Shown one piece after another: positions 1,813-58,511 of a DNA stretch of 64,000 nt; the stretch's first letter is position 1; the number at the start of each line of letters is the position of its first letter. Source of the stretch: Candidatus Magasanikiibacteriota bacterium (GTDB lineage Bacteria; Patescibacteriota; Patescibacteriia; Magasanikbacterales; UBA922); assembly GCA_014729395.1 (NCBI GenBank), contig WJJZ01000010.1, forward strand, positions 220,544 to 284,543, read 5' to 3'. The translations under genes and the position numbers were made by a program. A model generated the notes under the pieces. The model ran no database searches. It saw only the letters and a list, made by a program, of their open reading frames with translations, and was not told where the DNA came from.

Positions 1813-4266
1813 TTATTTCCTCACCTCCACCCCAAAACCACTCTCCAAAACTTTCTCTACTTGTGCTTGTATTTTATCCACCTCTTCCGCTTTTAGAGTT
1901 TTCTCTCCCGACTGATAAACAATATGATACGCCAAGCTTTTCTTGCCGGCCTCAATATTTTTTCCTTCATAGACATCAAACAATTCAACCGACACAATCA
2001 AATCACTTACGCCCTCGATTGCTTCTACCAAATCAACATGCTGGACTGACTTGTCTACAATCATGGCAATATCCCTATCCATACTTGGATACTCCGGTAC
2101 CTTTGTATAGTCTTCTTTTTCCAGATAAAATTCTAACAATTTACTCAAATCAATTTCAGCGACCGCAGTCGGGTAATCAATTCCTGCTTTTTTTTGTACA
2201 GTCGGATGAAGCTCAAAAATTTCACCAACCGAGGTCTCGTCCACGAAAATCTCCGCTTGCCGACCCGGATGCATATAGAGATCTATACCAATACTCTTCT
2301 TGGTTAATTTTATGTGGAATCCTAAAGTTTCCAAAGTACCAACTAAAGCATCAGATACTCCATAAAAAGGTGTTTTTTGATTTTTACCAGAAAAAACCAG
2401 TCCAAGCATGACAGATTGCCGAGGTAAAAGCTCATCGCCATTTTTTGCCGCTCTCTCACCGGGATTCTCCACATCGAAAATTTTACCGACCTCAAACATG
2501 CTAACATTATCTTTAAAATGTAAATTCTTTTCCAAATTTTCTATTAAGTTTGGTAAAAGACTGCGTCGCAAAAGCGGCCTATCTTTGGCCAAAGGATTTT
2601 CCAACTCGATATTTTTTTGTGCGTTAAAATCGAGTTTTTTTAGCCAATCAGGCGAGACAAAAGAATAGTTATAGCTTTCGGTAAAGCTGAATTTATAAAC
2701 CAAAAGTTCTTTGATTTTTCTTTCCAATTCTCGCAGTTTATTTCTCTCCGGCGGAATTACAGGAAAAGAAGGCAATTCTGTGTCTATATTGTCATAGCCA
2801 TAAATTCTGGAAATTTCCTCCACCAAATCTTCGGGAATAGAAACATCTTTGGTTGCCCGCCAAGTTGGAACTGTAACTTTCAAAACATGCTTCTTATCTT
2901 TTACTCCAAAGCCGAGGCGTTCCAAAATATCTATAATTTTCTTTTTTTCTATTTCCATGCCGATTTTTCTCTTCACAAATTCCAAATCAAGCTCAATCGG
3001 ACCGGTATTTAAGTGATAATCAGCCACGTCGGCTACATTACTCACTACACGTGCCTCGGGACAAAGTTCAAGAGTAAGTTCAACCGCTTTTTTAAGAGCG
3101 AGTTTACAATTATTTGGATCTTGGGCTTTTTCAAATCTGGCCGAAGAATCGGTTCTTAATCCCAGCGCAGTAGAGGTTCTACGAACGTTAATTGCATTAA
3201 AATTAGCTGATTCAAAAATGATAGCCTTGGTTTTCTCATTCACTTCAGAATTTTCCCCTCCCATTATCCCGGCCAAAGCCACCGGCTTTTTATCATCGGC
3301 AATCACCAACATGTCTGGAGTTAATTCATGCTCCTTTTCATCAAGAGTAGTAAACTTCTCACCCTTCTTCGCACGTCTAACAAACAATGATACACGTTCA
3401 CTGCTCATTGTTATTTGTTCACTGTCAAAAGCGTGCATTGGCTGCCCCAAATCAAACATTATATAATTCGTAATATCGACTATATTATTTATTGGACGTA
3501 TTCCCACTGCCATTAATCTTTTTTGCAGCCAACCGGGTGACGGCCCGATTTTCACTCCGTCAAGAGCTACGGCCATGTAGCGCGGACACAGCTCTTTATC
3601 TTCCACTTCCACTTTTATTTCCATTTCTTTACCCGGCTTAATTTCATCGGGTTTATATTTTTTTAATTTTTTTCTGTGAATGGCGGCCACTTCTCTTGCC
3701 ATGCCATAATGACCCCAAAGATCAGGTCGGTGGGTCATGGATTTATTATCAATGTCCAAAACCACGTCATCCAGCTCAAGCGCTTCTGCCAGCTGCGTAC
3801 CCGGTTTTAATTTCAAATCCGTCAAATCCAAAATTTCTTTTTCATCTTCCAAAGGAAACATGCCGCCCAGACCAATTTCAGTGGAAGCACAAATCATGCC
3901 TTCCGAAACTTCGCCGCGAATCTTGGCTTTTTTAAGCTCTACCAAATCCCCTTCTCCATGCCAACGCACTTTGGAACCGACTTTGGCAAAAGCTACTAAT
4001 ATACCTTCCCTTACATTAGAGCCACCACAAACCAGACTGTAATCTTTTTCTCCATCACTTACGGTACACAATAATAATTTATCCGCGTCCGGGTGTTTCT
4101 TTGTTTTTTTAACCTTGCCCACGACAATATTTTCAAAACTCTGTTTTTGATTTTCCACCCCCTCCACCTCAACCGTACTCATGGTAAGCTGCAAAGCCAA
4201 CTCTTCCGGAGTGAGAGAATCAGGCAAGCCGACGTATTGTTTGAGCCAATTTTTTGATATGTACAT
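1813..4266 (-). CDS. pheT: Phenylalanine--tRNA ligase beta subunit
   Basis: 826-aa ORF; N-terminal tRNA-binding domain (MYISKNWLKQY...), B3/B4 and FDX-ACB-like C-terminus. Start refined to ATG at 4264-4266 (MYISKNWL); track start is an upstream TTG. Confidence 0.9.
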   Translation of the reverse strand: MYISKNWLKQYVGLPDSLTPEELALQLTMSTVEVEGVENQKQSFENIVVGKVKKTKKHPDADKLLLCTVSDGEKDYSLVCGGSNVREGILVAFAKVGSKVRWHGEGDLVELKKAKIRGEVSEGMICASTEIGLGGMFPLEDEKEILDLTDLKLKPGTQLAEALELDDVVLDIDNKSMTHRPDLWGHYGMAREVAAIHRKKLKKYKPDEIKPGKEMEIKVEVEDKELCPRYMAVALDGVKIGPSPGWLQKRLMAVGIRPINNIVDITNYIMFDLGQPMHAFDSEQITMSSERVSLFVRRAKKGEKFTTLDEKEHELTPDMLVIADDKKPVALAGIMGGENSEVNEKTKAIIFESANFNAINVRRTSTALGLRTDSSARFEKAQDPNNCKLALKKAVELTLELCPEARVVSNVADVADYHLNTGPIELDLEFVKRKIGMEIEKKKIIDILERLGFGVKDKKHVLKVTVPTWRATKDVSIPEDLVEEISRIYGYDNIDTELPSFPVIPPERNKLRELERKIKELLVYKFSFTESYNYSFVSPDWLKKLDFNAQKNIELENPLAKDRPLLRRSLLPNLIENLEKNLHFKDNVSMFEVGKIFDVENPGERAAKNGDELLPRQSVMLGLVFSGKNQKTPFYGVSDALVGTLETLGFHIKLTKKSIGIDLYMHPGRQAEIFVDETSVGEIFELHPTVQKKAGIDYPTAVAEIDLSKLLEFYLEKEDYTKVPEYPSMDRDIAMIVDKSVQHVDLVEAIEGVSDLIVSVELFDVYEGKNIEAGKKSLAYHIVYQSGEKTLKAEEVDKIQAQVEKVLESGFGVEVRK

Positions 4267-4340: not shown

Positions 4341-5372
4341 TTAGAATTGCTCCAAAAATCTTACATCCCCACTATGCAAATGTCTAATGTCCTCTATACC
4401 ATACTTTTGCATTACAAGTCTCATTGAACCAAGCCCAAAAGCAAAACCGCTGTATTCTTTTGGATCAAGTCCGCCGTATTCAATTACTTTTGGATGAACC
4501 AGTCCGCACGGCAGTGTTTCCACCCAGCCGGAATGTTTACAAGCTCCGCAGCCCTCGCCCTCGCAAACCAAACATTTCATATCCAGTTCAAACCCGGGTT
4601 CTACAAATGGGAAAAATCCCGGTCGCAATCTTACCTCTACTTCTCTTTCTAAAATTCCTTGTAACAATTCTTTCATAACACCAATCAAATTTGCAATGGA
4701 AATATCTTTATCAACTACCAGTCCTTCCATTTGATAAAAAGTATGTTCATGAGAGGCGTCAGTCGCTTCATTTCTAAAACACCTGCCGGAAACTACAGCT
4801 CTAATTGGTGCACCATACTTTTGCATGGCACGAATCTGCACCGGTGAAGTATGGGGACGCATACACCAATCCGAATGATCTTTAATATAAAAAGTGTCCA
4901 TGCTTTCACGTGCCGGATGATCGGCCGGAATATTCAGAGCTTCAAATGCATAATAATTACTCTCAAGCTCGGGACCATCCAATACCATAAAGCCCATAGA
5001 GGTAAATAAATCTTCTAGTTTGTTATGAACAATTGTTATCGGATGAAAATGTCCATTTTCTGTCTGTGGCAACTTAGGCCGGGTTACATCAATTGATTCT
5101 TCACTAGATAACCCTGACTTATCTTCTTTTTCAAGTTCTGTCTTTTTTTCTTCAATCAATTCTTGAAATTCGCGTTTAATTTCATTGGCCAGTTTACCAA
5201 ATTCTTTTCTGGCTTCGCCTGACAAATCTTTTAAGTTCTTCATGATCTGCGTCATCTCTCCGGAACGACGAGAAAAAAAACGTTTTTCCAACTCATCAAG
5301 TTGAACCCCGTCTCTTATTTCTTCCAATCCTTTTATAAATTCTTTTTTTAATTTTTGTAGTTCGTTTTTCAT
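4341..5372 (-). CDS. pheS: Phenylalanine--tRNA ligase alpha subunit
   Basis: 343 aa; class II aaRS core motifs (FRNEATDASHEHTFYQMEG, GLGSMRLVM) typical of PheS. Confidence 0.9.
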   Translation of the reverse strand: MKNELQKLKKEFIKGLEEIRDGVQLDELEKRFFSRRSGEMTQIMKNLKDLSGEARKEFGKLANEIKREFQELIEEKKTELEKEDKSGLSSEESIDVTRPKLPQTENGHFHPITIVHNKLEDLFTSMGFMVLDGPELESNYYAFEALNIPADHPARESMDTFYIKDHSDWCMRPHTSPVQIRAMQKYGAPIRAVVSGRCFRNEATDASHEHTFYQMEGLVVDKDISIANLIGVMKELLQGILEREVEVRLRPGFFPFVEPGFELDMKCLVCEGEGCGACKHSGWVETLPCGLVHPKVIEYGGLDPKEYSGFAFGLGSMRLVMQKYGIEDIRHLHSGDVRFLEQF

Positions 5373-10643: not shown

Positions 10644-10785
10644 AAATAATAATTAACAATTAACAATGAACAACTAACAAATTTATTATCGTATACCGGA
10701 AAGCAATAAATTCTTTCGAAAAAATGAAGGTCTTCACGACAAGATTTGTTAATTGCTAATTGTTAGTTGTAAATTGAAAAATACT

Positions 10786-10991: not shown

Positions 10992-13544
10992 ATGAACCCG
11001 GAGCAATTTCTTGAAAGATTTTCAACACATCTAAAAAATACAATAGCCCGAGCTATCTCAATAGCGGTGTCCATGCAACATACTGAAGTTTCATCTACTC
11101 ATCTTATTTTAGCAATAATTGAAGAAGATGGTTCAGTTGGCGCCGAAATCATTCAGAAATCCGAACCAAAAAAGAAAAAAATTGCTTCTTTCTTACAAAA
11201 CAATCAATCTTTGAAAAATGAAAAAAAGAAAAAAAATTTAAACTCCCAAATCCCTGAACTGGATGATAATGCAAAACAATCCCTGGAAAGAGCCATGTTA
11301 ATCGCCTACAAACTAAAACATAACTATATCGGAACAGAACATTTACTATCTGGATTACTAAATAGTGATGATAAAAATATAAAGCAAATTTTTTCAAAAA
11401 AATATTTAGATAAGAAAGAATTGGAAAGGCAAATCAATACCGCACTTGAAAGTATCAGTAAATTTCCAAAAATTGAAGATGTGGGAGCCGTGATGGATCA
11501 GATACAAGGTATGCCTGATGAAACACCACTTGGAGCTAACCCGATTCAAGGACCCGGTATACCGATGATGCCGATTCCACAGTTGAATAAAAAAAAGACT
11601 GACATTACAAGTTATTATACAACCAACCTAACCAGTACGAAAATACAAAAAAATATTGACCCTGTAGTCGGTCGTGAAAAAGAAATTGAAAGAATAATAA
11701 ACATTTTGGCCAGACGTACAAAAAATAATCCGGTTTTGATCGGAGAACCCGGGGTTGGAAAAACCGCTATTATAGAGGGCTTGGCAAAAAACATACTTAA
11801 AAAAGAAACACCGCAATATCTGCACAAAAAAAAGATCCTATCCCTTGATCTCACTCTTTTAATTTCCGGAACAATATATCGAGGTGAATTTGAATCAAGA
11901 CTAAAACAAATTATAGATACAGTCAGTTCCAATGAAGATATAATCCTGTTTATTGACGAAATTCATAATATAATCGGAACCGGTACCAACCAGGGTACAA
12001 TGGACGCAGCCAACATCTTAAAACCGGCGCTGGCCAGAGGTAATTTGCGTTGCATCGGAGCAACAACAATCGACGAGTACAAAAAATATATCCACTCGGA
12101 CCCGGCTCTGGAAAGACGTTTTCAAGAAATCTTAATCGACGAAACTTCACAAGACGAAACTTTTTCCATAATAAAAGGTATAAAAGATAATTATGAAAAA
12201 TATCATAATACACAAATTACAAATAGCGCAATCCGGGCAGCGGTTGAGATGAGTAGTAAATATATTCATGATAATTTCTTGCCGGATAAAGCAATAGATC
12301 TGATTGACGAGGCATCAGCTTCTGTAAATATAAAAAGAAAAATCAATAGTGCCGAAAAAAAATTTAATGACCTGACGCAAGAGCTTGATGAAATAAAAAA
12401 ACATAAAAATAAAGCCATAACTGAAGAAAAATATTCGACCGCTAAAAAATTAAAGCAGAAAGAAGCGGAAATCAATAAAAAAATTGAAAAAGCAAGACAA
12501 GAAAACACCAAAAAACAAAGTAGAAAAAGAGTAACCGAAAAAGATGTGGCAAACGTGTTATCAAATCGCTTAAAAATAGACAAAAAAATTCTATTATCCA
12601 ATGAATGGGAACAACTAAATAATCTCAAAAAAAGGATGACTGCCAATATTTTTGGCCAAGATGATATTATGGAAAGCATTGTAAAAACCCTGCAAAAATC
12701 ACATTTACGCTCAAAAAAGCATACAGGTGCTTTTGCTTCCATGATCTTTGTAGGACCAAGCGGAGTGGGAAAAACAGAAACCGCAAAAATTCTCGCCCGC
12801 GAACTTTTTCACGATAAAGACGCCCTAATAAAGCTGGATATGAGTGAATTTTCAGAATCACACGGCATATCCAAACTACTGGGCTCACCTGCCGGTTATG
12901 TTGGTTACAATGACCGAAATTTATTTTTGGAAAAAATAACCAAAAAACCTTATTCTGTTGTTTTATTTGATGAGTTTGATAAGGCCCACGCCAGCATTAG
13001 AAGACTTCTTTTGCAAATACTCGACGATGGCTACCTCACAGACAGTATTGGCAAGAAAATTAGTTTTAATCATGCTATAATAATAATTACTACAAATATT
13101 GCTTCCGAGTTATTCAAATCAAGCGGAATCGGTTTTGAAAATATACATAATTTTGCCAACGAAAGAAATCAAATACTTAAATCAAAACTGAAAGAAAAGT
13201 TTGGTACAGAATTAATTGATAGGATGGAAAATATTCATATCTTCAATCCACTCACCAGAAAAGATTTAAAAAAAATCGTGACCAAAAAACTAGATGAGAC
13301 TATTCAAAATGTAGAAAAATCACAAGCTTTAAATATTGTCAGCGAAGATAAAATAATAGATCATCTGATCGGTAATATTTTTTCAGAAAAGCAAGGTGCC
13401 AGACAGATAAAAAAAACTGTAGAAGATATTATTCACAAACTTATAGTTGATTTTTTGAGTAATCGGAAGAATGATGCTAAAAAAAATCCAGATCTTAAGC
13501 TAAAAATTGTTAATGATAAAATCAAATTCATAGAAAATAGATAA
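10992..13544 (+). CDS. clpC: Clp/Hsp100 AAA+ ATPase (ClpC/ClpB family) with two Clp_N repeats, two AAA modules, short coiled-coil M domain
   Basis: GEPGVGKTAI (D1 Walker A), VGPSGVGKTE (D2 Walker A), N-domain repeats, possible ClpP-loop GIGF; 850 aa. Confidence 0.8.
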   Translation: MNPEQFLERFSTHLKNTIARAISIAVSMQHTEVSSTHLILAIIEEDGSVGAEIIQKSEPKKKKIASFLQNNQSLKNEKKKKNLNSQIPELDDNAKQSLERAMLIAYKLKHNYIGTEHLLSGLLNSDDKNIKQIFSKKYLDKKELERQINTALESISKFPKIEDVGAVMDQIQGMPDETPLGANPIQGPGIPMMPIPQLNKKKTDITSYYTTNLTSTKIQKNIDPVVGREKEIERIINILARRTKNNPVLIGEPGVGKTAIIEGLAKNILKKETPQYLHKKKILSLDLTLLISGTIYRGEFESRLKQIIDTVSSNEDIILFIDEIHNIIGTGTNQGTMDAANILKPALARGNLRCIGATTIDEYKKYIHSDPALERRFQEILIDETSQDETFSIIKGIKDNYEKYHNTQITNSAIRAAVEMSSKYIHDNFLPDKAIDLIDEASASVNIKRKINSAEKKFNDLTQELDEIKKHKNKAITEEKYSTAKKLKQKEAEINKKIEKARQENTKKQSRKRVTEKDVANVLSNRLKIDKKILLSNEWEQLNNLKKRMTANIFGQDDIMESIVKTLQKSHLRSKKHTGAFASMIFVGPSGVGKTETAKILARELFHDKDALIKLDMSEFSESHGISKLLGSPAGYVGYNDRNLFLEKITKKPYSVVLFDEFDKAHASIRRLLLQILDDGYLTDSIGKKISFNHAIIIITTNIASELFKSSGIGFENIHNFANERNQILKSKLKEKFGTELIDRMENIHIFNPLTRKDLKKIVTKKLDETIQNVEKSQALNIVSEDKIIDHLIGNIFSEKQGARQIKKTVEDIIHKLIVDFLSNRKNDAKKNPDLKLKIVNDKIKFIENR

Positions 13545-22640: not shown

Positions 22641-24704
22641 TCACTCCAGATGGACTTTTTCTTCCCAATCGGCTATTTTTTCCTTTAAACTGGGATATTT
22701 TTTAAAATCTATACCTCTTGCAATATCTCGTGACATTTTGATTAAAGCAACATCTCTCATAGTGGCCAATCTAAAATTCATCATTCCACTTTGAGCCACA
22801 CCATATACATCTCCCGGACCGCGTAATTTCAAATCATATTCAGCCAACTTAAAACCATCATTTGTGCTTTCAAAATACCCTAATCTTTTTTGAGCTTTTT
22901 CAGAATCACTGTCAGTGAATAAAAAACAATAAGATTGATGACTACTTCTCCCCACCCTACCTCTAAACTGATGCAATTGAGCCAAACCGAATCTCTCCGC
23001 CCCCTCTATCATCATTACACTTGCATTTGGAACATCCACCCCCACTTCAATTACAGAGGTTGAGACCAAAATATCTATTTTTCCCTCGCTAAATTTTTTC
23101 ATACTTTTATTTTTATCATCCGCTTTCATCTTGCCATGAAGATAAGCAATTTCTAAATCAGGAAAAATTTGTTTTGATAGTTTTTCATATTCTGCCATTA
23201 CCGACTTTTTTTCACTTAAGCCGGTACTTACATTCTGCCCTTCCTCTATCAATGGGCAAACAACAAAAACTTGCCTACCCTGTTTGACCTGATCTTTGAT
23301 AAACTCATAGGCTTTTTCACGATTATGCGGATCTACCAGTCTGGTCTTAACCGGTTTTCTACCCTTGGGCATTTCATTTATTATGGATAAATCCAAATCC
23401 CCATAAAGAGTTAATGCAAATGAACGTGGAATTGGGGTAGCTGTCATGGACAAAAAATGTGGCGTGGTTTTTTTATTACCGGATTGTTCTTTTATTTTCT
23501 TCCTCTGTTCAACCCCAAAACGATGCTGCTCGTCTACAATCACAAGACCTAAGTCTTTAAAATTAACCTTATCAACCAGCAAAGCATGAGTACCAACGAC
23601 AATATCCACATCACCGGATTCTAACAAAGATATAAATTCTTTCTTGGAAGCTTTTTTATCATTTATAATCTTTTGAGTTCTTGTAAAAAGCCCGATTTTT
23701 AAATTATCATTAAACAAGTTTAACAACGATTCGAAATGCTGTTTAGCTAAAATTTCCGTTGGTGCCATCATAGCGGTTTGAAAATCATTCAAAATGCAGT
23801 TGTACATAACAATAGCCGATACCACTGTTTTGCCGGCTCCCACATCCCCCTCCAACATTCTATTCATAGGAGTTCGCTTTTCCAAATCTTGCAATATTTC
23901 CCAAGTAGCGATTTTTTGAGCTTTGGTAAGAGTAAACGGCAAAGCATCGACGAATTTTTTTGTTTCTAATTCTTTAAACTTAATTTGCGGTGCTTGAGAT
24001 TTTTTGATGGACTGGCGGAGTATTTCAGCACGTAACTGCAACAAAAACAATTCATCAAACTTAAGACGTTTTTCAGATTGCGCTAAATCAATTTTATCTT
24101 CCGGAAAGTGAATTCCTTTTATCCCGTCTTTTAGTGGTACCAAGTCGACTTGCTCTAAGATATCATCCGGCAACCAATCGTCTAATTTCTCGGCCATTTT
24201 TATAACTTGACTCATCAAAAATCTAATTTGTTTTTGAGTAATTCCGCTGGTTAAAGAATAAATAGGGACAATTCTGGCTGTATGAGTAGTTCCGGTTTTT
24301 CCCTCCTTTTCGTAGGCCGGACCTATCATCTGCATACCAAACATACTGTCGTTTACCTTGCCTGACAAATAAACCGTATCACCCGCTCTCAGATTTTTTG
24401 TGATAAATGGCTGACCGAACCATACAACTTTAATCCTATCCGTTTCATCAACCACAACCGCTTCGGTAATAATTTTTCTTTTTCTGGGGCTGCGTTTATT
24501 GGCAATCAGCTCTATCTTCCCTTTTACTGTCACTTGTTCTCCGTCCTTCAGATCTTCTATATTGACCGTTTTGCTATAATCTTCGTATCTGAATGGAAAA
24601 TAATAAAGCAAATCTTCAACCGTTTCTATACCAAGACGAGACAACCTTTTTTCCAAGGTCTTCCCAACTCTATTTAATTGTCTAACTTTTGTGTTCAATT
24701 GCAT
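22641..24704 (-). CDS. recG: ATP-dependent DNA helicase RecG
   Basis: Wedge/OB N-terminus, helicase motifs DVGAGKT, DEQH (VVDEQHRFGV), 687 aa. Confidence 0.9.
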   Translation of the reverse strand: MQLNTKVRQLNRVGKTLEKRLSRLGIETVEDLLYYFPFRYEDYSKTVNIEDLKDGEQVTVKGKIELIANKRSPRKRKIITEAVVVDETDRIKVVWFGQPFITKNLRAGDTVYLSGKVNDSMFGMQMIGPAYEKEGKTGTTHTARIVPIYSLTSGITQKQIRFLMSQVIKMAEKLDDWLPDDILEQVDLVPLKDGIKGIHFPEDKIDLAQSEKRLKFDELFLLQLRAEILRQSIKKSQAPQIKFKELETKKFVDALPFTLTKAQKIATWEILQDLEKRTPMNRMLEGDVGAGKTVVSAIVMYNCILNDFQTAMMAPTEILAKQHFESLLNLFNDNLKIGLFTRTQKIINDKKASKKEFISLLESGDVDIVVGTHALLVDKVNFKDLGLVIVDEQHRFGVEQRKKIKEQSGNKKTTPHFLSMTATPIPRSFALTLYGDLDLSIINEMPKGRKPVKTRLVDPHNREKAYEFIKDQVKQGRQVFVVCPLIEEGQNVSTGLSEKKSVMAEYEKLSKQIFPDLEIAYLHGKMKADDKNKSMKKFSEGKIDILVSTSVIEVGVDVPNASVMMIEGAERFGLAQLHQFRGRVGRSSHQSYCFLFTDSDSEKAQKRLGYFESTNDGFKLAEYDLKLRGPGDVYGVAQSGMMNFRLATMRDVALIKMSRDIARGIDFKKYPSLKEKIADWEEKVHLE

Positions 24705-24800
24705 ATTTATTTATTTTAGCAAAAACTTTATAAAAAAGAAAAACCCAAGCATTTCTGACTTGGGTAACTATATCTTGAGGCTTCATTTTAATTATTGAAA

Positions 24801-25091
24801 TCACTCCATCATGACAATCTCACAATGACAATACAAAGAGCCCTGCACTTCTTTTATTGCATCGGTGAGAGTCCGTCTATTACCATTAAAATATTTTGGG
24901 CCAATCTCACCTTCGGTTACCATTTTATTCGCTATCTTGTACGCCAACCGATAATTATCCTCAGAGTCATCAAGCCAGACGACATCATCACACATTTCAC
25001 ATCTGGTTAGTATTCCGGCCATTATTGCAATCTCTTCAACTATATCCTGCTCAGCAAACTGAATGTCCAGTAAATCCTTGGCACGCGACAT
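24801..25091 (-). CDS. Hypothetical Cys-containing small protein (96 aa)
   Basis: CEMCDD...CHCE motifs (possible zinc ribbon); lies between recG and the tRNA-Arg repeat block. Confidence 0.4.
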   Translation of the reverse strand: MSRAKDLLDIQFAEQDIVEEIAIMAGILTRCEMCDDVVWLDDSEDNYRLAYKIANKMVTEGEIGPKYFNGNRRTLTDAIKEVQGSLYCHCEIVMME

Positions 25092-25159
25092 GTTTAATCC
25101 TCCCTTATGTAAAAAACTTAACTATCAAACAAAGCTCCAAAATGGAGCCTGTGCACCCA

Positions 25160-25281
25160 CCAGGAATCCCCGCCCGAGGCGGGTGCGCCTTGGGCGCAGA
25201 ACCTACACTTTGTGCTCTCGGCAGGAATCCCCGCCCGAGGCGGGTGCGCCTTGGGCGCAGAACCTACACTTTGTGCTCTCG
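25160..25281. repeat. Two perfect tandem 61-bp direct repeats abutting the 3' end of tRNA-Arg; each unit = copy of last ~24 nt of tRNA (+trailer) fused to GC-rich hairpins
   Basis: Units 25160-25220 and 25221-25281 identical: CAGGAATCCCCGCCCGAGGCGGGTGCGCCTTGGGCGCAGAACCTACACTTTGTGCTCTCGG; contains GAACCTACA...GCTCTCGGCAGGAATC matching the tRNA T-arm/acceptor; hairpins CCCGCC-CGA-GGCGGG and GCGCC-TTG-GGCGC. Confidence 0.8.
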
Positions 25282-25344
25282 GCAGGAATCGAACCTACAT
25301 TGCCAGTTCCGCAAACTGGTGTCCTATCCGTTGAACGACGAGAG
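25273..25344 (-). tRNA. tRNA-Arg (anticodon GCG)
   Basis: Manual fold: acceptor GCTCTCG/CGAGAGC, D arm GTTC-AACGGATA-GGAC, anticodon arm CCAGT-TTGCGGA-ACTGG, T arm GTAGG-TTCGATT-CCTGC; no encoded CCA. Coordinates +/-2. Confidence 0.65.
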
Positions 25345-25390
25345 CTTCAAAAATCGCCTAAATTATAGCCAAAAAAACAAAATCCGTCAA

Positions 25391-25560
25391 TATGATACGG
25401 ATATACGGATAATGCAGATTTACGGATCGTTTGTTGGCAAATTAATATATTATTTACTAAGCAAAAAATATATTTAAATGTATACGGCAAAGCAGAATAA
25501 CCTTTTGAACTATAATAATATTATCCGTAAATCTGAATGCATCTGTAAATCCGTATCATA
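25391..25560. mobile_element. MITE-like ~170-bp element with ~37-nt imperfect terminal inverted repeats rich in TACGGAT heptamers, located in the tRNA-Arg promoter region
   Basis: Left TATGATACGGATATACGGATAATGCAGATTTACGGAT vs reverse complement of right ATCCGTAAATCTGAATGCATCTGTAAATCCGTATCATA: ~85% match; AT-rich 92-nt interior, no ORF. Confidence 0.45.
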
Positions 25561-25563
25561 ATA

Positions 25564-26067
25564 TTAATGTAGCTTCCACACCCTGGCAAACTTGTCACTA
25601 TATGGCTCCTCCTCTTTTTCAATATCTTCTTCCAAATACTGCTTTAGAGTACTTCTTACTTTCAGTGGGTCATTATCTTTTAATGGTATCCTAAGAAGAG
25701 GTCTGGTCGTACTTTTTGTGTCAATAAATAATGACTTGGTTTCAGGCGGATCATAAATTATATAAAATTTTTCCAGTTCATTATATTCATAAAATCTATT
25801 GCCAATCATGATTCCAAGTTCAGAAATTCCAAAAGGAACTTCAGTCGGTTCTTGGTGTGACTGCAAAAAAATAATAATGGAAAATAAAATTATTATCAAT
25901 GAAAACAAGAAATTACCACTAAATACACCGTATAAAACCAGCGCTAATCCCAAAATTATCATAAATATGTACCATCGCCTGCTTCGGTTAAATTTTTCAA
26001 ATTCTTCAATTTTCCAATTATGCAAAATTTTGCCGGTCAATACACTATTTGTAATCTGTTTCGGCAT
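25564..26067 (-). CDS. Hypothetical membrane protein (two TM + C-terminal soluble domain, possibly bacterial PH-like)
   Basis: 167-aa ORF; hydrophobic pair IFMIILGLALVLYGVF / LFSLIIILFSIIIFL. Confidence 0.45.
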   Translation of the reverse strand: MPKQITNSVLTGKILHNWKIEEFEKFNRSRRWYIFMIILGLALVLYGVFSGNFLFSLIIILFSIIIFLQSHQEPTEVPFGISELGIMIGNRFYEYNELEKFYIIYDPPETKSLFIDTKSTTRPLLRIPLKDNDPLKVRSTLKQYLEEDIEKEEEPYSDKFARVWKLH

Positions 26068-32897: not shown

Positions 32898-35117
32898 ATG
32901 AGTAAATCATTAGTTATAGTTGAATCACCAACAAAAGCGAAAACAATATCAAAATTTTTAAAAAACGGATATATAGTTGAATCCTCTTTTGGTCATTTAA
33001 GAGATTTACCCAAAAGCAAAATGGGTATAAATATAGAAGATGAAAGTTTTGAACCTGAGTATATAATTCCCAAAGACAAAAATAAATACGTCAAAATCCT
33101 AAAAGAAAAATCAAAAAAAGCCGATGAAATCATTTTTGCAACAGATGAAGACAGAGAAGGTGAAGCGATTTCATGGCATTTGGCACAAATTCTGGGTATT
33201 GATCCCAAAAAAGCAAAACGGATTGTTTTTCATGAAATTACAAAAAGAGCGATAGAAGAAGCGATAAAAAATCCCAGACATATTGATAAACAATTGGTTA
33301 ATGCTCAACAAGCCAGAAGAATACTCGACAGATTGGTAGGTTACGAGCTTTCACCATTTTTATGGAAAAAAGTTGCTCGCGGTTTATCGGCCGGTCGTGT
33401 TCAGTCAGTAGCTCTTCGCTTAATAGTTGAAAGAGAAAGAGAGATTAAAAAATTTATACCCCAAGAATATTGGACTCTATTGGGTATTTTTGATATTCCC
33501 ACAACCAAAAAGAAAGAACAATTGGAAGCAAAATTATACAGTATTGATGATAAAAGACTAAAAAAATTAGATATAAAACAGAAAAAAGAGATAGACGAAA
33601 TTCTACAAGATTTAAAAACAGCAAAATATAAAATAACAAAAATTACGAAAAAAGAAACAAAACGCACTCCTCCACCGCCATTTACAACCTCCACTCTCCA
33701 ACAAAATGCTCATAATAAACTGGGATATTCCTCAAAACAAATAATGAGAATTGCCCAACAATTATATGAAGGTGTGAAAATTGGATCTCACGGTCATGTA
33801 GGTTTAATTACGTATATGCGTACAGATTCCTTGAATCTTTCGAATAAATTTACCAAAGAGGTAAAAGACTTTATAAATAAAGAATTCGGCAATAAATATT
33901 CTATTGAAAAAATCAGATATTATAAAAATAAATCCAAAGGAGCCCAAGAAGCACATGAGGCGATCAGACCCACAGACCCTGAAAAAACCCCTGAATCAAT
34001 TAAGGAATACCTTACCCCTCAACAATACAAAATATACGATTTGATTTGGAAAAGAGCGGTTGCAACGCAGATGAAAGAAGCCAGATTAAACAAAACCAGT
34101 CTGGACATTTCAGCTAAAAAATATACTTTTAGAGCTAGCGGACAAACCATGATTTTCAGTGGTTGGCTAAAACTGTACCCAAAATCCATAAAGGAAGAAA
34201 TGCTGCCTGATTTGAAAGAAGGTTTGGAAATGGATTGTTCAGTATTAAAACCGGAACAGCATTTTACAGAACCGCCAGCCAGATATTCAGACGCGACATT
34301 GGTCAAAGCCCTGGAAGAACATGGTATTGGCAGACCTTCAACTTATGCTCCCACTATTGCCACAATTGAAGCGAGAAAATATGTTGAAAGGGATGAAAAT
34401 AAAAGACTTATGCCCACGGAAATATCATTTTTAGTAAACGATTTATTGGTAAAACATTTCTCAGATATAGTTGATTATGAATTTACAGCTGAAATGGAGG
34501 AAGATTTGGATACAATTGCCGAAGGAGAAAAAAAATGGAAACCAATAATTAGGGATTTTTATAAACCTTTTCATAAAAATTTAGAAAAAAAGACAAAAGA
34601 ACTATCAAAAAAAGAGTTGACTGAAGAAGAAACGGATGAAAAATGCGAGAAATGCGGCAGTGATATGATAATTAAACTCGGACGATTCGGAAAATTTATG
34701 GCATGTTCCAATTATCCGGAATGTAAGAATACAAAACCGGTTGACCCTGAGGAAAGAAAAGAAGAAGAAACGGATGAAAAATGCGAGAAATGCGGCAGTG
34801 ATATGATTGTAAAACATGGTAGATATGGAACCTTTCTGGGTTGTTCAAATTACCCCGACTGTAAAAATATAAAACCAATAGAAAAGAAAACGGGGGTAAA
34901 ATGCAACAAATGTAATAATGGAGAATTTATAGAAAAAAGAACAAAAAAAGGAAGAACTTTTTACGGTTGTAATCGTTATCCCGATTGCGAAAATGCTTTA
35001 TGGAGTAAACCAACGGGAGAAAACTGTCCTCAATGTAAACAACCATTAGTGTTTGGTTCAAAAAAAGTCATTCGCTGCTCAAACAAAGAATGCAAATACA
35101 AAAAAAATAATAAATAA
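32898..35117 (+). CDS. topA: DNA topoisomerase I with Toprim domain and tandem C-terminal C4 zinc ribbons
   Basis: Toprim IVESPTKAKTI, core domains, four CxxC...CxxC ribbons; includes a nucleotide-identical 47-nt internal duplication (34623-34669 = 34761-34807). Confidence 0.9.
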   Translation: MSKSLVIVESPTKAKTISKFLKNGYIVESSFGHLRDLPKSKMGINIEDESFEPEYIIPKDKNKYVKILKEKSKKADEIIFATDEDREGEAISWHLAQILGIDPKKAKRIVFHEITKRAIEEAIKNPRHIDKQLVNAQQARRILDRLVGYELSPFLWKKVARGLSAGRVQSVALRLIVEREREIKKFIPQEYWTLLGIFDIPTTKKKEQLEAKLYSIDDKRLKKLDIKQKKEIDEILQDLKTAKYKITKITKKETKRTPPPPFTTSTLQQNAHNKLGYSSKQIMRIAQQLYEGVKIGSHGHVGLITYMRTDSLNLSNKFTKEVKDFINKEFGNKYSIEKIRYYKNKSKGAQEAHEAIRPTDPEKTPESIKEYLTPQQYKIYDLIWKRAVATQMKEARLNKTSLDISAKKYTFRASGQTMIFSGWLKLYPKSIKEEMLPDLKEGLEMDCSVLKPEQHFTEPPARYSDATLVKALEEHGIGRPSTYAPTIATIEARKYVERDENKRLMPTEISFLVNDLLVKHFSDIVDYEFTAEMEEDLDTIAEGEKKWKPIIRDFYKPFHKNLEKKTKELSKKELTEEETDEKCEKCGSDMIIKLGRFGKFMACSNYPECKNTKPVDPEERKEEETDEKCEKCGSDMIVKHGRYGTFLGCSNYPDCKNIKPIEKKTGVKCNKCNNGEFIEKRTKKGRTFYGCNRYPDCENALWSKPTGENCPQCKQPLVFGSKKVIRCSNKECKYKKNNK

Positions 35118-38689: not shown

Positions 38690-38790
38690 AAGCTTAAAAG
38701 GCCTGAAAGGCTAGTATCTATTGTTTAGAAGTCTTTCAGGCTTTTCTGGCATTTTAAGCCTTTCTAGCCTTTTATAATTATACTACAAAT
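38690..38790. promoter_or_regulatory. Repeat-rich parAB upstream region (GGCCTGAAAGG / CCTTTCAGGC / GCCTTTCTAGCC palindromic repeats), candidate operator
   Basis: Three interlocking inverted repeats within 90 bp directly upstream of parA start. Confidence 0.35.
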
Positions 38791-38835
38791 TGACATCAGA
38801 CACAATAAAATGTATAATCATTTAGCAGAAATTAA

Positions 38836-39050
38836 GCCCGAGTGGCCTGCCTTCGTTCCGATCTTATCGGAACTTCGGCAAGGCAAGCGGGACTCCGTAA
38901 AGCTCGCTACACTCGCTCTGGGTAAAGCTGGCTCTTATTTTGAGCTACAGTGAATAAAAGACGCTCAATATTTAAAATCAATAAACTAAGCCCGAGTGGC
39001 GGAATTGGTAGACGCGCACGACCTGCCTGCCGGCAGGCAGGCTCAAAATC
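38836..39050 (+). pseudogene. Decayed tRNA-Leu 5'-fragment copies: 11-nt stub (38836-38846) and 33-nt 5' half (38990-39022) interrupted by a 19-nt palindrome (CTGCCTGCCGGCAGGCAGG) before the anticodon loop (CTCAAAATC, 39042-39050)
   Basis: GCCCGAGTGGCGGAATTGGTAGACGCGCACGAC identical to intact tRNA-Leu at 39299; preceded by same 24-nt upstream sequence (AATATTTAAAATCAATAAACTAAG) as the intact gene; region 38847-38960 contains strong hairpins. Confidence 0.6.
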
Positions 39051-39199
39051 AACATTTTATGGTTTACTATGTTTACACAATAAAGAGTAAAATTAAATCA
39101 TATATTTATGTTGGAATTTCAGATAACCCTAATAGACGTATATTGTAGCATAATAAAGGTTATAATAAAACTACTAAGCCCTATAAACCGTTTGTATGT

Positions 39200-39297
39200 A
39201 TACTGTTAGAAAAGTATGATTCCAGAAGAGATGCAAGAGAAAGAGAAAAATATTTAAAGAGCGGCTTTGGAAAAGAATATTTAAAATCAATAAACTA
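39200..39297 (+). pseudogene. Remnant of a small GIY-YIG nuclease gene (C-terminal ...RERExYLKSGFGKEYLKSIN*) ending 1 nt before tRNA-Leu
   Basis: Frame encodes KPFVCILLEKYDSRRDARERENYLKSGFGKEYLKSIN*, matching the conserved C-terminus (REK/YLKSGxGRExLK) and a fragment of the N-terminal YVYIL motif of ~90-aa GIY-YIG proteins; internally deleted; a second decayed copy of the C-terminal codons (DAQYLKSIN*) at 38961-38990. Confidence 0.4.
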
Positions 39298-39298
39298 A

Positions 39299-39380
39299 GC
39301 CCGAGTGGCGGAATTGGTAGACGCGCACGACTCAAAATCGTGTTCCTTCGGGAGTGAGAGTTCGATTCTCTCCTCGGGCA
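39299..39380 (+). tRNA. tRNA-Leu (anticodon CAA)
   Basis: GCCCGAGTGGCGGAATTGGTAGACGCGCACGACTCAAAATCGTGTTCCTTCGGGAGTGAGAGTTCGATTCTCTCCTCGGGCA; long variable arm, anticodon loop CTCAAAA; D-arm nearly identical to E. coli tRNA-Leu. Confidence 0.85.
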
Positions 39381-39388
39381 CAATAATT

Positions 39389-52191: not shown

Positions 52192-52345
52192 AGATTACAA
52201 TAACTGGAAAATAATTTGACCATAATTATACAATAATTACTGCTTAATACCGCCCTAATTATTGTAAAATTTTTATATAATTATTGTTTTATTATAATTC
52301 TATGATAGCTAAAATATGCCAAATTTGCAATATTATGCTGCGGTC

Positions 52346-57955: not shown

Positions 57956-58045
57956 TGGCGGAGGAGGTGGGATTCGAACCCACGGAGGACTTGCACCCTC
58001 AACGGTTTTCAAGACCGTCGCCTTCGACCGCTCAGCCACTCCTCC
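57956..58045 (-). tRNA. tRNA-Ser (anticodon TGA), encoded CCA
   Basis: rc: GGAGGAGTGGCTGAGCGGTCGAAGGCGACGGTCTTGAAAACCGTTGAGGGTGCAAGTCCTCCGTGGGTTCGAATCCCACCTCCTCCGCCA. Confidence 0.85.
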
Positions 58046-58422
58046 ATGTTTAGACAAAATGCCTGTTTGTAAATGCTCTTCCAGAGCCAGTCTTCAAATA
58101 CTTCTCAAAATTAAAAGCCGTATATTTATCAGGAAAGCAACAGTAAAAAAAATAATTCTACTGACAACCTATTACGGGTTGATTTTACTTTACCATTTTT
58201 ATGCAACTTCACTCGTTTCTTCAAATTAGAAGTACAGCCTACGTATAAATTATCATTACCACATCGTAATATGTAAACATACCACATAACAAAGAAATAT
58301 TATAAAGCAGATAAAACCCCCCTTCGCTGTCGCTTTCATAAAAAACAAAAAAGCTTTAGAAAAGTATCCCAACGGACCGTGTCCGCCGTAGCCCAGACGA
58401 AGCGACAGCTTCGACGGGCGAA

Positions 58423-58511
<89 letters not shown>

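Follow-up and report, generated by a model that had tools for sequence, protein, structure and literature searches.

In the 64,000 nucleotides of Candidatus Magasanikiibacteriota DNA analysed here (contig WJJZ01000010.1, positions 220,544 to 284,543; hereafter the window), an intact tRNA-Arg(GCG) gene is followed by a tandem array of tails, partial copies of a tRNA 3' end that are split by a 30-nt module of two GC-rich hairpins. On the minus strand, from 25390 to 25130, the order is promoter, tRNA-Arg(GCG), 61-bp array and terminator-like hairpin (Table 1). An earlier note, written from the letters alone, had described reiterated tRNA 3' ends and a terminator-like element behind them, and both proved real, the tRNA being called by ARAGORN and Rfam and the array being found 100% identical by Tandem Repeats Finder (TRF). 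With the acceptor strands GCTCTCG/CGAGAGC, the T arm GTAGG-TTCGATT-CCTGC and no encoded CCA, the tRNA-Arg gene has near-identical counterparts in L002/L118, L121 and L035 (L numbers designate the loci used for comparison), and the position of the promoter relative to the gene is the same across the orthologous loci. Each tRNA gene occurs as a single copy within the window, and the genomes of such bacteria are tiny; most tRNA genes here are probably essential single copies.

The 61-bp unit is composed of the 9-nt TGTAGGTTC, a copy of the 5' side of the T stem and T loop, the 30-nt double hairpin, the 17-nt GATTCCTGCCGAGAGCA, which is the tRNA 3' end from G57 to the discriminator, and the 5-nt trailer CAAAG. 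A division into 24 nt of tRNA and a 37-nt hairpin, as given in the earlier note, has to be replaced by 17 + 5 + 9 + 30 nt. Each tail reproduces the tRNA segment that runs from G52 in the T arm through to the 3' end. The module sits exactly between C56 and G57 and in both tails splits the T-loop motif GGTTC/GATTCC at the slash; the tRNA-Arg gene itself reads TGTAGGTTC directly followed by GATTCCTGCCGAGAGCA, uninterrupted. The module of the window, TGCGCC-CAA-GGCGCA/CCCGCC-TCG-GGCGGG, forms two GC hairpins with perfect 6-bp stems and occurs exactly twice in the 64 kb, compared with zero occurrences expected from shuffled sequence.

The two tails had been taken to be alike in their tRNA 3' ends, which is not the case. 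In tail unit 1, GATTCCTGCCGAGAGCA is identical to the 3' end of tRNA-Arg, whereas the last, partial copy of the array has a different 3' strand, GATTCCTGGTGGGTGCA; this third copy shares only the octamer GATTCCTG with the others and then continues as GTGGGTGCA. The distal strand (GATTCCTGGTGGGTGCA/GTGGGTGCA) is unable to pair with the tRNA 5' strand GCTCTCG, and it agrees with the 3' end that tRNA-Arg has in L123 at 15/17 positions, with that of its own tRNA at 13/17. It could be assigned to no single tRNA type, the best matches (14-15/17) being spread over several Lys and Arg tRNAs. Comparison with relatives lacking the repeats, a check proposed in the earlier note, revealed a close relative with the same tRNA allele and no tail. 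Because of this relative and of the mismatch to GCTCTCG, the distal copy is not simply the displaced original end of the tRNA. One unequal crossover or slippage within GATTCCTG, by which an arrangement tRNA-tail' may have become tRNA-tail-tail', would account for the perfect 61-bp identity as well as for the odd last copy.

That the two perfect units represent a misassembled single tail is scarcely credible. The window does come from a metagenome-assembled genome, and a perfect tandem repeat that stays unresolved typically leaves de Bruijn assemblers in exactly two copies; however, the second copy needs a unit-to-unit junction in the reads, tandem tail arrays are present in independent assemblies (L093, L086, L101 and L099/L103), some of them with diverged units, for which no artefact can account, and the single-tail architecture recurs in dozens of contigs.

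Some further readings were ruled out by the anatomy of the tails. They hold the genomic trailer and no post-transcriptional CCA, which excludes an origin as retro-copies, and a CRISPR array, a TIGR array, a ribozyme or an intron is incompatible with their structure and with the Rfam scan of the locus, in which the tRNA was the sole match and the remaining matches were far under threshold. An archaeal-type tRNA intron or split tRNA was rejected as well, given that the hairpins are self-contained and show no exon-intron pairing (no bulge-helix-bulge), that the tails come without a tRNA 5' half and that the host is a bacterium. In the predicted fold of the 226-nt transcript, the cloverleaf is retained and is accompanied by very stable tail hairpins (-102.5 kcal/mol, z = -3.8).

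Table 1. Positions of the features discussed in the text (numbering of the window; ORF, open reading frame; HMM, hidden Markov model)
Feature	Position	Strand	Evidence or remark
recG	22641-24704		
ORF96, orphan CxxC...CxC protein in the variable slot	24801-25091	-	second terminator after it, 24743-24765
Intrinsic-terminator-like hairpin ending the tRNA-plus-tails unit	25150-25132	-	
Tail unit 2	25152-25207	-	stub 25199-25207; hairpin 25169-25198; divergent GATTCCTGGTGGGTGCA 25152-25168
Tandem array, period 61, 2.1 copies, 100% matches	25161-25290	-	TRF
Tail unit 1	25213-25268	-	stub TGTAGGTTC 25260-25268; hairpin 25230-25259; GATTCCTGCCGAGAGCA 25213-25229
Trailer CAAAG, 5 nt, between tRNA and first tail	25269-25273, again at 25208-25212	-	sequence reading
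tRNA-Arg(GCG), intact	25273/25274-25345	-	ARAGORN and Rfam, 59.1 bits
sigma70-type promoter of tRNA-Arg, TTGACG-17-TATAAT	25390-25362	-	11/12 consensus matches
TACGGAT-rich inverted-repeat element, ~175 nt	25391-25565	.	arms ~25391-25427 and 25520-25560
tRNA-Leu head 1	38836-38846	+	first 11 nt, then GC hairpins and C-terminal GIY-YIG remnant
tRNA-Leu head 2	38990-39022	+	first 33 nt, then 19-nt GC palindrome (39023-39041) and anticodon-loop bases; heads region 38836-39058
GIY-YIG ORF with one in-frame TAG	39059-39298	+	HMM, E=4e-10, match 39149-39295
tRNA-Leu(CAA), intact	39299-39381	+	starts one base past the end of the GIY-YIG ORF
tRNA-Ser(TGA)	57956-58045	-	
Frameshifted GIY-YIG gene directly upstream of tRNA-Ser(TGA)	58052-58286	-	PF01541, 42.9 bits, cut-off 22.6

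The 30-nt module beyond the window

The suspicion of the earlier note that the GC hairpin belongs to a repeat family was borne out on a scale far wider than one genome, with 33 metagenomic contigs, L033 and several recG genes carrying copies. In the distant relative L033, whose RecG is 53% identical, one homologous tail lies behind tRNA-Arg(GCG) and both of its stems are compensatorily changed; the 33 contigs were retrieved by a metagenome scan for the pattern GGTTC-module-GATTCC. The GC content of these contigs ranges from 30 to 66% and the module is GC-rich throughout; one high-GC contig that was checked is Patescibacteria-like. An incomplete literature search yielded no account of the tails or the module, nor of any GIY-YIG-tRNA cassette from Patescibacteria, and the family is apparently widespread in this group and undescribed.

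In 24 of the 33 loci, the tail lies 2-154 nt downstream of the end of an intact, co-oriented tRNA gene, a proximity not forced by the search pattern; with the window and L033 included, the figures are 25/35 loci and 26/39 listed copies. The isotypes next to tails include Arg, Gly, Lys, Gln, Glu, Leu, Pro, Trp, Asn, Thr and Ile. In 9 loci the 3' strand of the tail is identical to that of the neighbouring tRNA, and in the rest it has diverged, while homology to the tRNA on the left stops 5-12 nt before the module and does so exactly at GGTTC in at least nine loci. The sites occupied by the module are T, D or anticodon loops of partial tRNA copies beside intact tRNAs. Between L083 and L094, the spacer differs in 17/45 columns versus 4/196 in the tRNA and downstream flank, and L083 has additionally gained a 5' head, namely a partial 5' copy of the tRNA with a double hairpin in its D loop. 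An empty site in L095 corresponds to an anticodon-loop site that is filled in L081, and one module copy of L101 contains a nested insertion.

In viral contigs, the T-loop form of the module gave no matches, and the module alone gave three, none of them near a tRNA. All-against-all clustering of the ORFs around the tails disclosed no recurrent mobilising enzyme and no transposase candidate; the Xer-like genes beside tRNA-Arg(TCT) represent conserved synteny and lie on the 5' side.

Other repeats were seen at comparable places. Tails of tRNA-Arg and tRNA-Glu in L011 (5720-6000) and L042 (~13236-13520) are preceded by different GC-rich elements of 100-150 nt, which end with AGTGAGAT(T) at the T-loop junction. 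L035 displays perfect arrays of 183 nt and 180 nt (x2.1) after tRNA-Arg(GCG) and tRNA-Ser(GCT), at 3419-3806 and 4926-5309; their unit combines the tRNA 3' end with a terminator, a degenerate copy of this end in inverted orientation, a stretch rich in AT and a shared ~45-nt motif abutting TTCGAWTCC. In L091 (166-207)/L105 (60-101), a degenerate module is flanked by the 11-nt direct repeat AAATACGTATT, itself palindromic, and it belongs to the few module copies with a duplication-like flank.

Among 28 distinct module copies, all 336 of 336 pair cells in the stems are Watson-Crick and none is G-U; five pairs change on both sides and none on one side only. This Watson-Crick-only covariation means that a palindrome maintained at the DNA level fits better than an RNA structure. 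A function of the tails as RNA, for which they would be selected within the tRNA precursor (e.g., in 3'-end protection, in processing or as a decoy), is highly improbable, even if they lie inside the transcription unit between tRNA and terminator, are predicted to fold very stably, keep their stems across deep lineages and retain a 3' strand identical to that of the tRNA in 9 loci. It conflicts with the translation of the same module in frame within proteins, with the lack of G-U among the 336 pair cells and with the loss of T-stem complementarity in many tails; moreover, the closest relatives are tail-free and no Rfam family matches. The tails are probably non-functional passengers in the 3' trailer of the tRNA.

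Copies inside protein genes were revealed by a covariance model run on recG-centred loci (1.0 Mb) whose choice had not depended on the module; the same search also retrieved the tails. In-frame insertions of 30 nt in recG are read as VNF[SAKGGSASGG]KNLG in L019 (1090-1119) and as SNF[SAKGGSASGG]QFP in L007, the brackets enclosing the inserted residues; the recG matches of L007, at 1331-1371 and 1946-1974, include a half copy with a single hairpin, KF[SAKGG]KN. In L023 (5614-5672), recG has an expanded copy, and recG of P0144 has the module at the same site as L019. Together, the recG copies (L019, L007, L023 and P0144) occupy four different places. L019 is the one case with an empty site defined by an orthologue, and there is no target duplication. 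Thus, the module is a discrete insertion. The idea that recG is a special hotspot (four insertions, 3/80 loci) was dismissed, as only 2/120 further RecG and 1/121 TsaD proteins carry the module. In L097 (3789-3829), the module lies in a tsaD-like gene, in frame but read in another frame (PPKADPPLAE), flanked by GAAATCC heptamer repeats; the encoded protein has a second GC-rich extra segment of 13 amino acids (aa).

Such copies raise the question of an independent palindromic mini-element, selfish and non-autonomous, that would land on the tips of hairpin DNA at TTY/RA sites (between Y and R) and survive where it is harmless, in partial tRNA duplicates and protein surface loops, with the GIY-YIG genes described below as mere neighbours. 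We consider this rather unlikely. It would suit the clean insertions in frame and without target duplication in recG, the one in a tsaD-like gene, the three viral-contig copies without tRNA context and the known half, nested and expanded copies, and a DNA-level palindrome is also what the Watson-Crick-only covariation and the GC-rich module in hosts of 30-66% GC would lead one to expect. What it leaves unaccounted for are the partial tRNA copies beside so many tRNAs, the inner boundary only 5-12 nt from the insertion point, the unrelated GC-rich elements at the same junction (L011, L042 and L035) and the joint gain of duplication and hairpin in L083 since its split from L094, and the ORFs around the tails include no transposase candidate.

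Small palindromic elements of other kinds offer partial parallels. With REP/REPIN elements (RAYT transposases) and IS200/IS605 palindrome-associated elements, the module has in common short GC-rich hairpins, the lack of a target duplication and an orientation bias; here, in contrast, neither a RAYT nor a TnpA gene was observed, the hairpins are perfect and unbulged, copies also lie inside ORFs and there is no conserved flanking tetranucleotide. Rickettsia palindromic elements (RPEs) are selfish palindromic DNA situated in frame in unrelated protein genes, and they also insert into RNA genes; the resemblance is functional and does not imply membership. RPEs are about 150 bp long, form ten families and are restricted to Rickettsia (PMC10969869), whereas the module is 30 nt long, is built of two minimal hairpins, is found in Patescibacteria and is strongly linked to tRNA loops. 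The double-hairpin elements, GC clusters and hairpin-forming repetitive elements of mitochondria are GC-rich hairpins (single to triple) in intergenic DNA, variable rRNA parts and protein genes, are often in tandem and stay in transcripts (PMC2800124 and papers cited therein), but they are organellar, are unrelated in sequence and have no reported link to partial tRNA copies or nuclease genes.

GIY-YIG genes at tRNA genes and a proposed origin of the tails

Partial tRNA copies capped by hairpins were also found on the 5' side of tRNA genes. L121 has, behind the promoter, the first 12 nt of tRNA-Arg, then a hairpin, ~70 nt and the intact tRNA. L123 likewise has these 12 nt (GCTCTCGTCGTT) behind the promoter, continued by a double hairpin of 36 nt, an ORF for an 82-aa GIY-YIG protein and then the intact tRNA-Arg(GCG). 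Its head keeps the local allele GCTCTCG, and the intact tRNA after the ORF is of another allele, GCACCCG/CGGGTGC. L118 and L121 are without a nuclease gene and L123 has the cassette and a different tRNA allele, which is a single comparison.

By means of tBLASTn and an HMM, eight distinct GIY-YIG ORFs were identified in 1.3 Mb. For five, a co-oriented tRNA lies 4-28 nt downstream of the ORF end (L092, 3754-4074; L123/L124; L095, 2-268; L081/L089/L095, 407-646; and the window ORF before tRNA-Leu). For a sixth, which is frameshifted and lies before tRNA-Ser, the HMM match is 87 nt upstream, and a reading of the frame ends ~7 nt upstream. The remaining two are not beside a called tRNA (L092, 1117-1371, ~2.3 kb away; and L113, a weak match with E ~7e-4). 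Four copies scanned against Pfam (L123, L081, L092 and 58132-58299 of the window) scored 43-54 bits for PF01541, with a cut-off of 22.6. GIY-YIG ORFs are associated with 5 of the 33 tail loci versus none of the 80 recG loci (Fisher p = 0.002). Hairpin-capped tRNA fragments precede the ORF in L123, in L081/L089/L095, in L092 and at tRNA-Leu of the window, and in L081/L089/L095 and L092 the fragment bears the 30-nt module in its T loop.

The window itself holds two such nuclease genes, both decayed. At the tRNA-Leu locus (38790-39381), the heads, the remnant and the ORF are all downstream of one promoter, TTGACA-17-TATAAT. The junction between the end of the ORF and the start of the tRNA is present twice there, so that the locus appears to be a record of nested invasions. 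The tRNA-Ser(TGA) locus has no hairpin-capped 5' fragment, unlike the other nuclease-bearing loci cited. GC-rich hairpins were also seen after the 3' end of tRNA-Ser(GCT), at ~58380-58425.

The closest known counterpart is SegB of phage T4, a free-standing GIY-YIG homing endonuclease of the tRNA gene cluster, whose 27-bp site in tRNA genes has GGTTCRANTCC on its 5' side, a degenerate centre and CCAR where cleavage occurs (PMC2330249). Through its nuclease activity, SegB drives the tandem amplification of a segment that contains tRNAs, and phage homologues of segB are clustered with tRNAs (PMC13096335). As with SegB of T4 and T6, a GIY-YIG gene adjoins tRNA genes in our loci, and the SegB recognition site covers the very tRNA segment that the tails copy, from GGTTC to the 3' end; co-conversion of neighbouring tRNA alleles and tandem amplification at tRNA loci are further features of the phage system. 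The differences are that the setting here is Patescibacteria chromosomes and not phages, that the protein comprises only the ~80-aa catalytic domain and is known from sequence, that the fragments are capped or split by GC hairpins and that the tRNA-Arg locus is without a remaining nuclease gene.

With a probability of roughly 0.5, we interpret the tails, like the matching 5' heads, as footprints of SegB-like GIY-YIG activity at tRNA genes; the tails would later have been amplified by unequal recombination. Small free-standing GIY-YIG cassettes would break tRNA genes at loop positions, and repair by homing or illegitimate events would leave an intact gene and a displaced fragment capped or split by the hairpin module. 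The nuclease gene would afterwards decay, as both copies of the window have, and be lost. Tails without an ORF may be the end state, and at tRNA-Arg only the tail would be left.

A number of observations weigh against this interpretation. There is no GIY-YIG gene at the tRNA-Arg locus and no tail locus with a nuclease ORF between tRNA and tail; the nuclease genes are located upstream of tRNAs, on the head side. The ~80-aa GIY-YIG proteins are the catalytic domain only and have no counterpart of the DNA-binding part of SegB, and for this reason specificity for the T loop is pure analogy. The intact tRNA retains an unsplit GGTTCGATTCC, which means that the hairpin alone confers no immunity. The module also occurs in protein genes far from any tRNA sequence and therefore may be an independent palindromic element that redundant tRNA fragments simply tolerate. 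The T-loop share of the 33 contigs is biased upward by a metagenome pattern that demanded the GGTTC and GATTCC flanks, and the copy number of the array is that of the assembly.

A more specific proposal, which is possible but has to be called tentative, is an undescribed self-healing cassette of Patescibacteria made up of the ~80-aa GIY-YIG nuclease and the hairpin module. It would enter the D, anticodon or T loop of essential tRNA genes and bring along a replacement for the part it displaces. The double hairpin would be the end structure of the cassette and would split the recognition motif GGTTC/GATTCC in the leftover fragment. The tails at tRNA-Arg would be decayed copies, and the module might secondarily have become free-living and entered protein genes.

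The surroundings of the locus and the meaning of the tails

By its RecG, the window belongs to Candidatus Magasanikbacteria, a lineage of Patescibacteria. The gene order Der-LytR-ORF167-tRNA-Arg(GCG)-RecG is conserved. In the closest relatives with data, RecG is 68% identical and the tRNA-Arg nearly identical; downstream of the tRNA, L002/L118 have a terminator and recG, and L121 has a 304-aa ORF. In L123 (2260-2500) and L120 (430-660), a small MazE/AbrB-like ORF preceded by TTACGTAAT palindromes lies between tRNA-Arg and recG. The slot between these two genes can be regarded as a variable hotspot because its contents differ among close relatives, from nothing to the 304-aa ORF, the MazE-like ORF or, in the window, ORF96. 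The latter protein has no homologue except itself among 5.8 billion proteins and zero matches to PDB sequences; sub-threshold matches to a lambda Ea8.5 domain and to one PHROG were the only ones obtained, and a single-sequence AlphaFold model was unusable (pLDDT, the predicted local distance difference test score, 46). ORF96 is situated outside the repeats, with no repeat at its far side. Its description as a leftover cargo gene in the earlier note is in keeping with an orphan of weak phage-domain likeness in a variable slot, but there is no cargo between the repeats.

Repeated tRNA 3' ends had further been read in the earlier note as the footprint of integration at an attachment (att) site. 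A precedent is provided by the ssrA islands of Dehalococcoides, which feature a 20-bp repeat, insertion midway through the T loop, islands in tandem and a conserved motif adjoining the repeat and are recombinase-driven (PMC3146451). With these and with mycobacteriophage Ms6 (PMC1762012), the locus shares a direct repeat from the T loop to the 3' end, tandem arrays and a variable downstream slot; it differs in that there is no recombinase or cargo between the repeats, that the T loop is interrupted by 30 nt and that 5' heads exist. On an att reading, the tails would be attR repeats left in the T loop by a tyrosine or serine recombinase, the elements having since shrunk to a handful of bases, the arrays having arisen by accretion and the module being a conserved element end beside the crossover. 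This is distinctly unlikely. The extent of the repeat, from mid-T-loop to the 3' end as in Dehalococcoides, the variability of the slot among relatives, the orphan ORF96 with its weak Ea8.5 match and the perfect 180/183-nt arrays of element plus tRNA 3' end at two tRNAs of L035 all speak in its favour. However, a tblastn search of the 64-kb window with recombinases of Xer/phage-integrase type gave no match, no recombinase recurs beside tails, and such Xer-like genes as were seen are in conserved synteny, on the 5' side. With 61-100 nt, the units lack the length for circularisation, the module has before it a 5-nt copy of the T loop's left half, integration at the 3' end does not fit the heads at D and anticodon loops, and the module is present in ORFs, too. 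The repeated 3' ends and the variable slot lend the earlier claim partial support, while the 5-nt spacers, the hairpin-split repeat, the 5' heads and the lack of an integrase go against it.

Upstream of tRNA-Arg, the TACGGAT inverted repeat announced in the earlier note is real, its arms being 79-94% complementary over segments of 16-20 nt, but it lies directly upstream of an intact -35 box and not inside the tRNA promoter. It spans the region from the ORF167 stop codon to that box and contains 5 of the 11 occurrences of the heptamer in the window. The ORF167 stop codon overlaps the -35 box (CATTGAC) in L003, L022 and L039, and the ~175 extra nt of the window therefore represent an insertion relative to these distant orthologues. 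L002/L118 and L121 have a single (A/G)TCCGT box beside the -35, and no second TACGGAT cluster was found in the window or in 113 loci. The flanks, ACATT and ATTGAC, permit a duplication of ATT or CAT and are too short to judge. A TAACAAT-heptamer inverted repeat at 10651-10775 ends 10 nt before a perfect TTGACA-18-TATAAT, and at 52197-52287 an inverted repeat of ACAATAATTA-like 11-mers is located upstream of a promoter, in the same architecture as the TACGGAT element. Hence, a promoter-proximal operator array is as likely as a miniature inverted-repeat transposable element.

Two further repeats of the window deserve mention. The hairpins at 245-324, to which the GC hairpin of the tails had been likened, are an inverted pair of the motif GTCATTCCCGCGAAGGCGGGAATC, 31 nt apart, with another copy in an unrelated contig (L107:322-346); they constitute a small palindromic family different from the 30-nt module. 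A 138-nt repeat (x1.8) at 34623-34876, inside a 739-aa ORF (32898-35117), has a consensus with spaced Cys codons, which suggests a repeated Cys-rich segment.

An element that enters essential tRNA genes must avoid killing its host, and the layout of heads and tails, with an intact copy kept beside the broken one, is one solution. If the link to the GIY-YIG nucleases is true, SegB-type intron-less homing at tRNA genes would reach beyond the T-even phages, its capacity to amplify tRNA loci, shown recently, would hold for chromosomes throughout a major bacterial radiation that is uncultured, and swaps of tRNA alleles between lineages would be explained. As a marker of these events, the 30-nt module is simple to use; it also gives rise to spurious tRNA fragments, to Gly/Ser/Ala-rich inserts of 10 residues in proteins and to perfect repeats that break the assembly of metagenome-assembled genomes.

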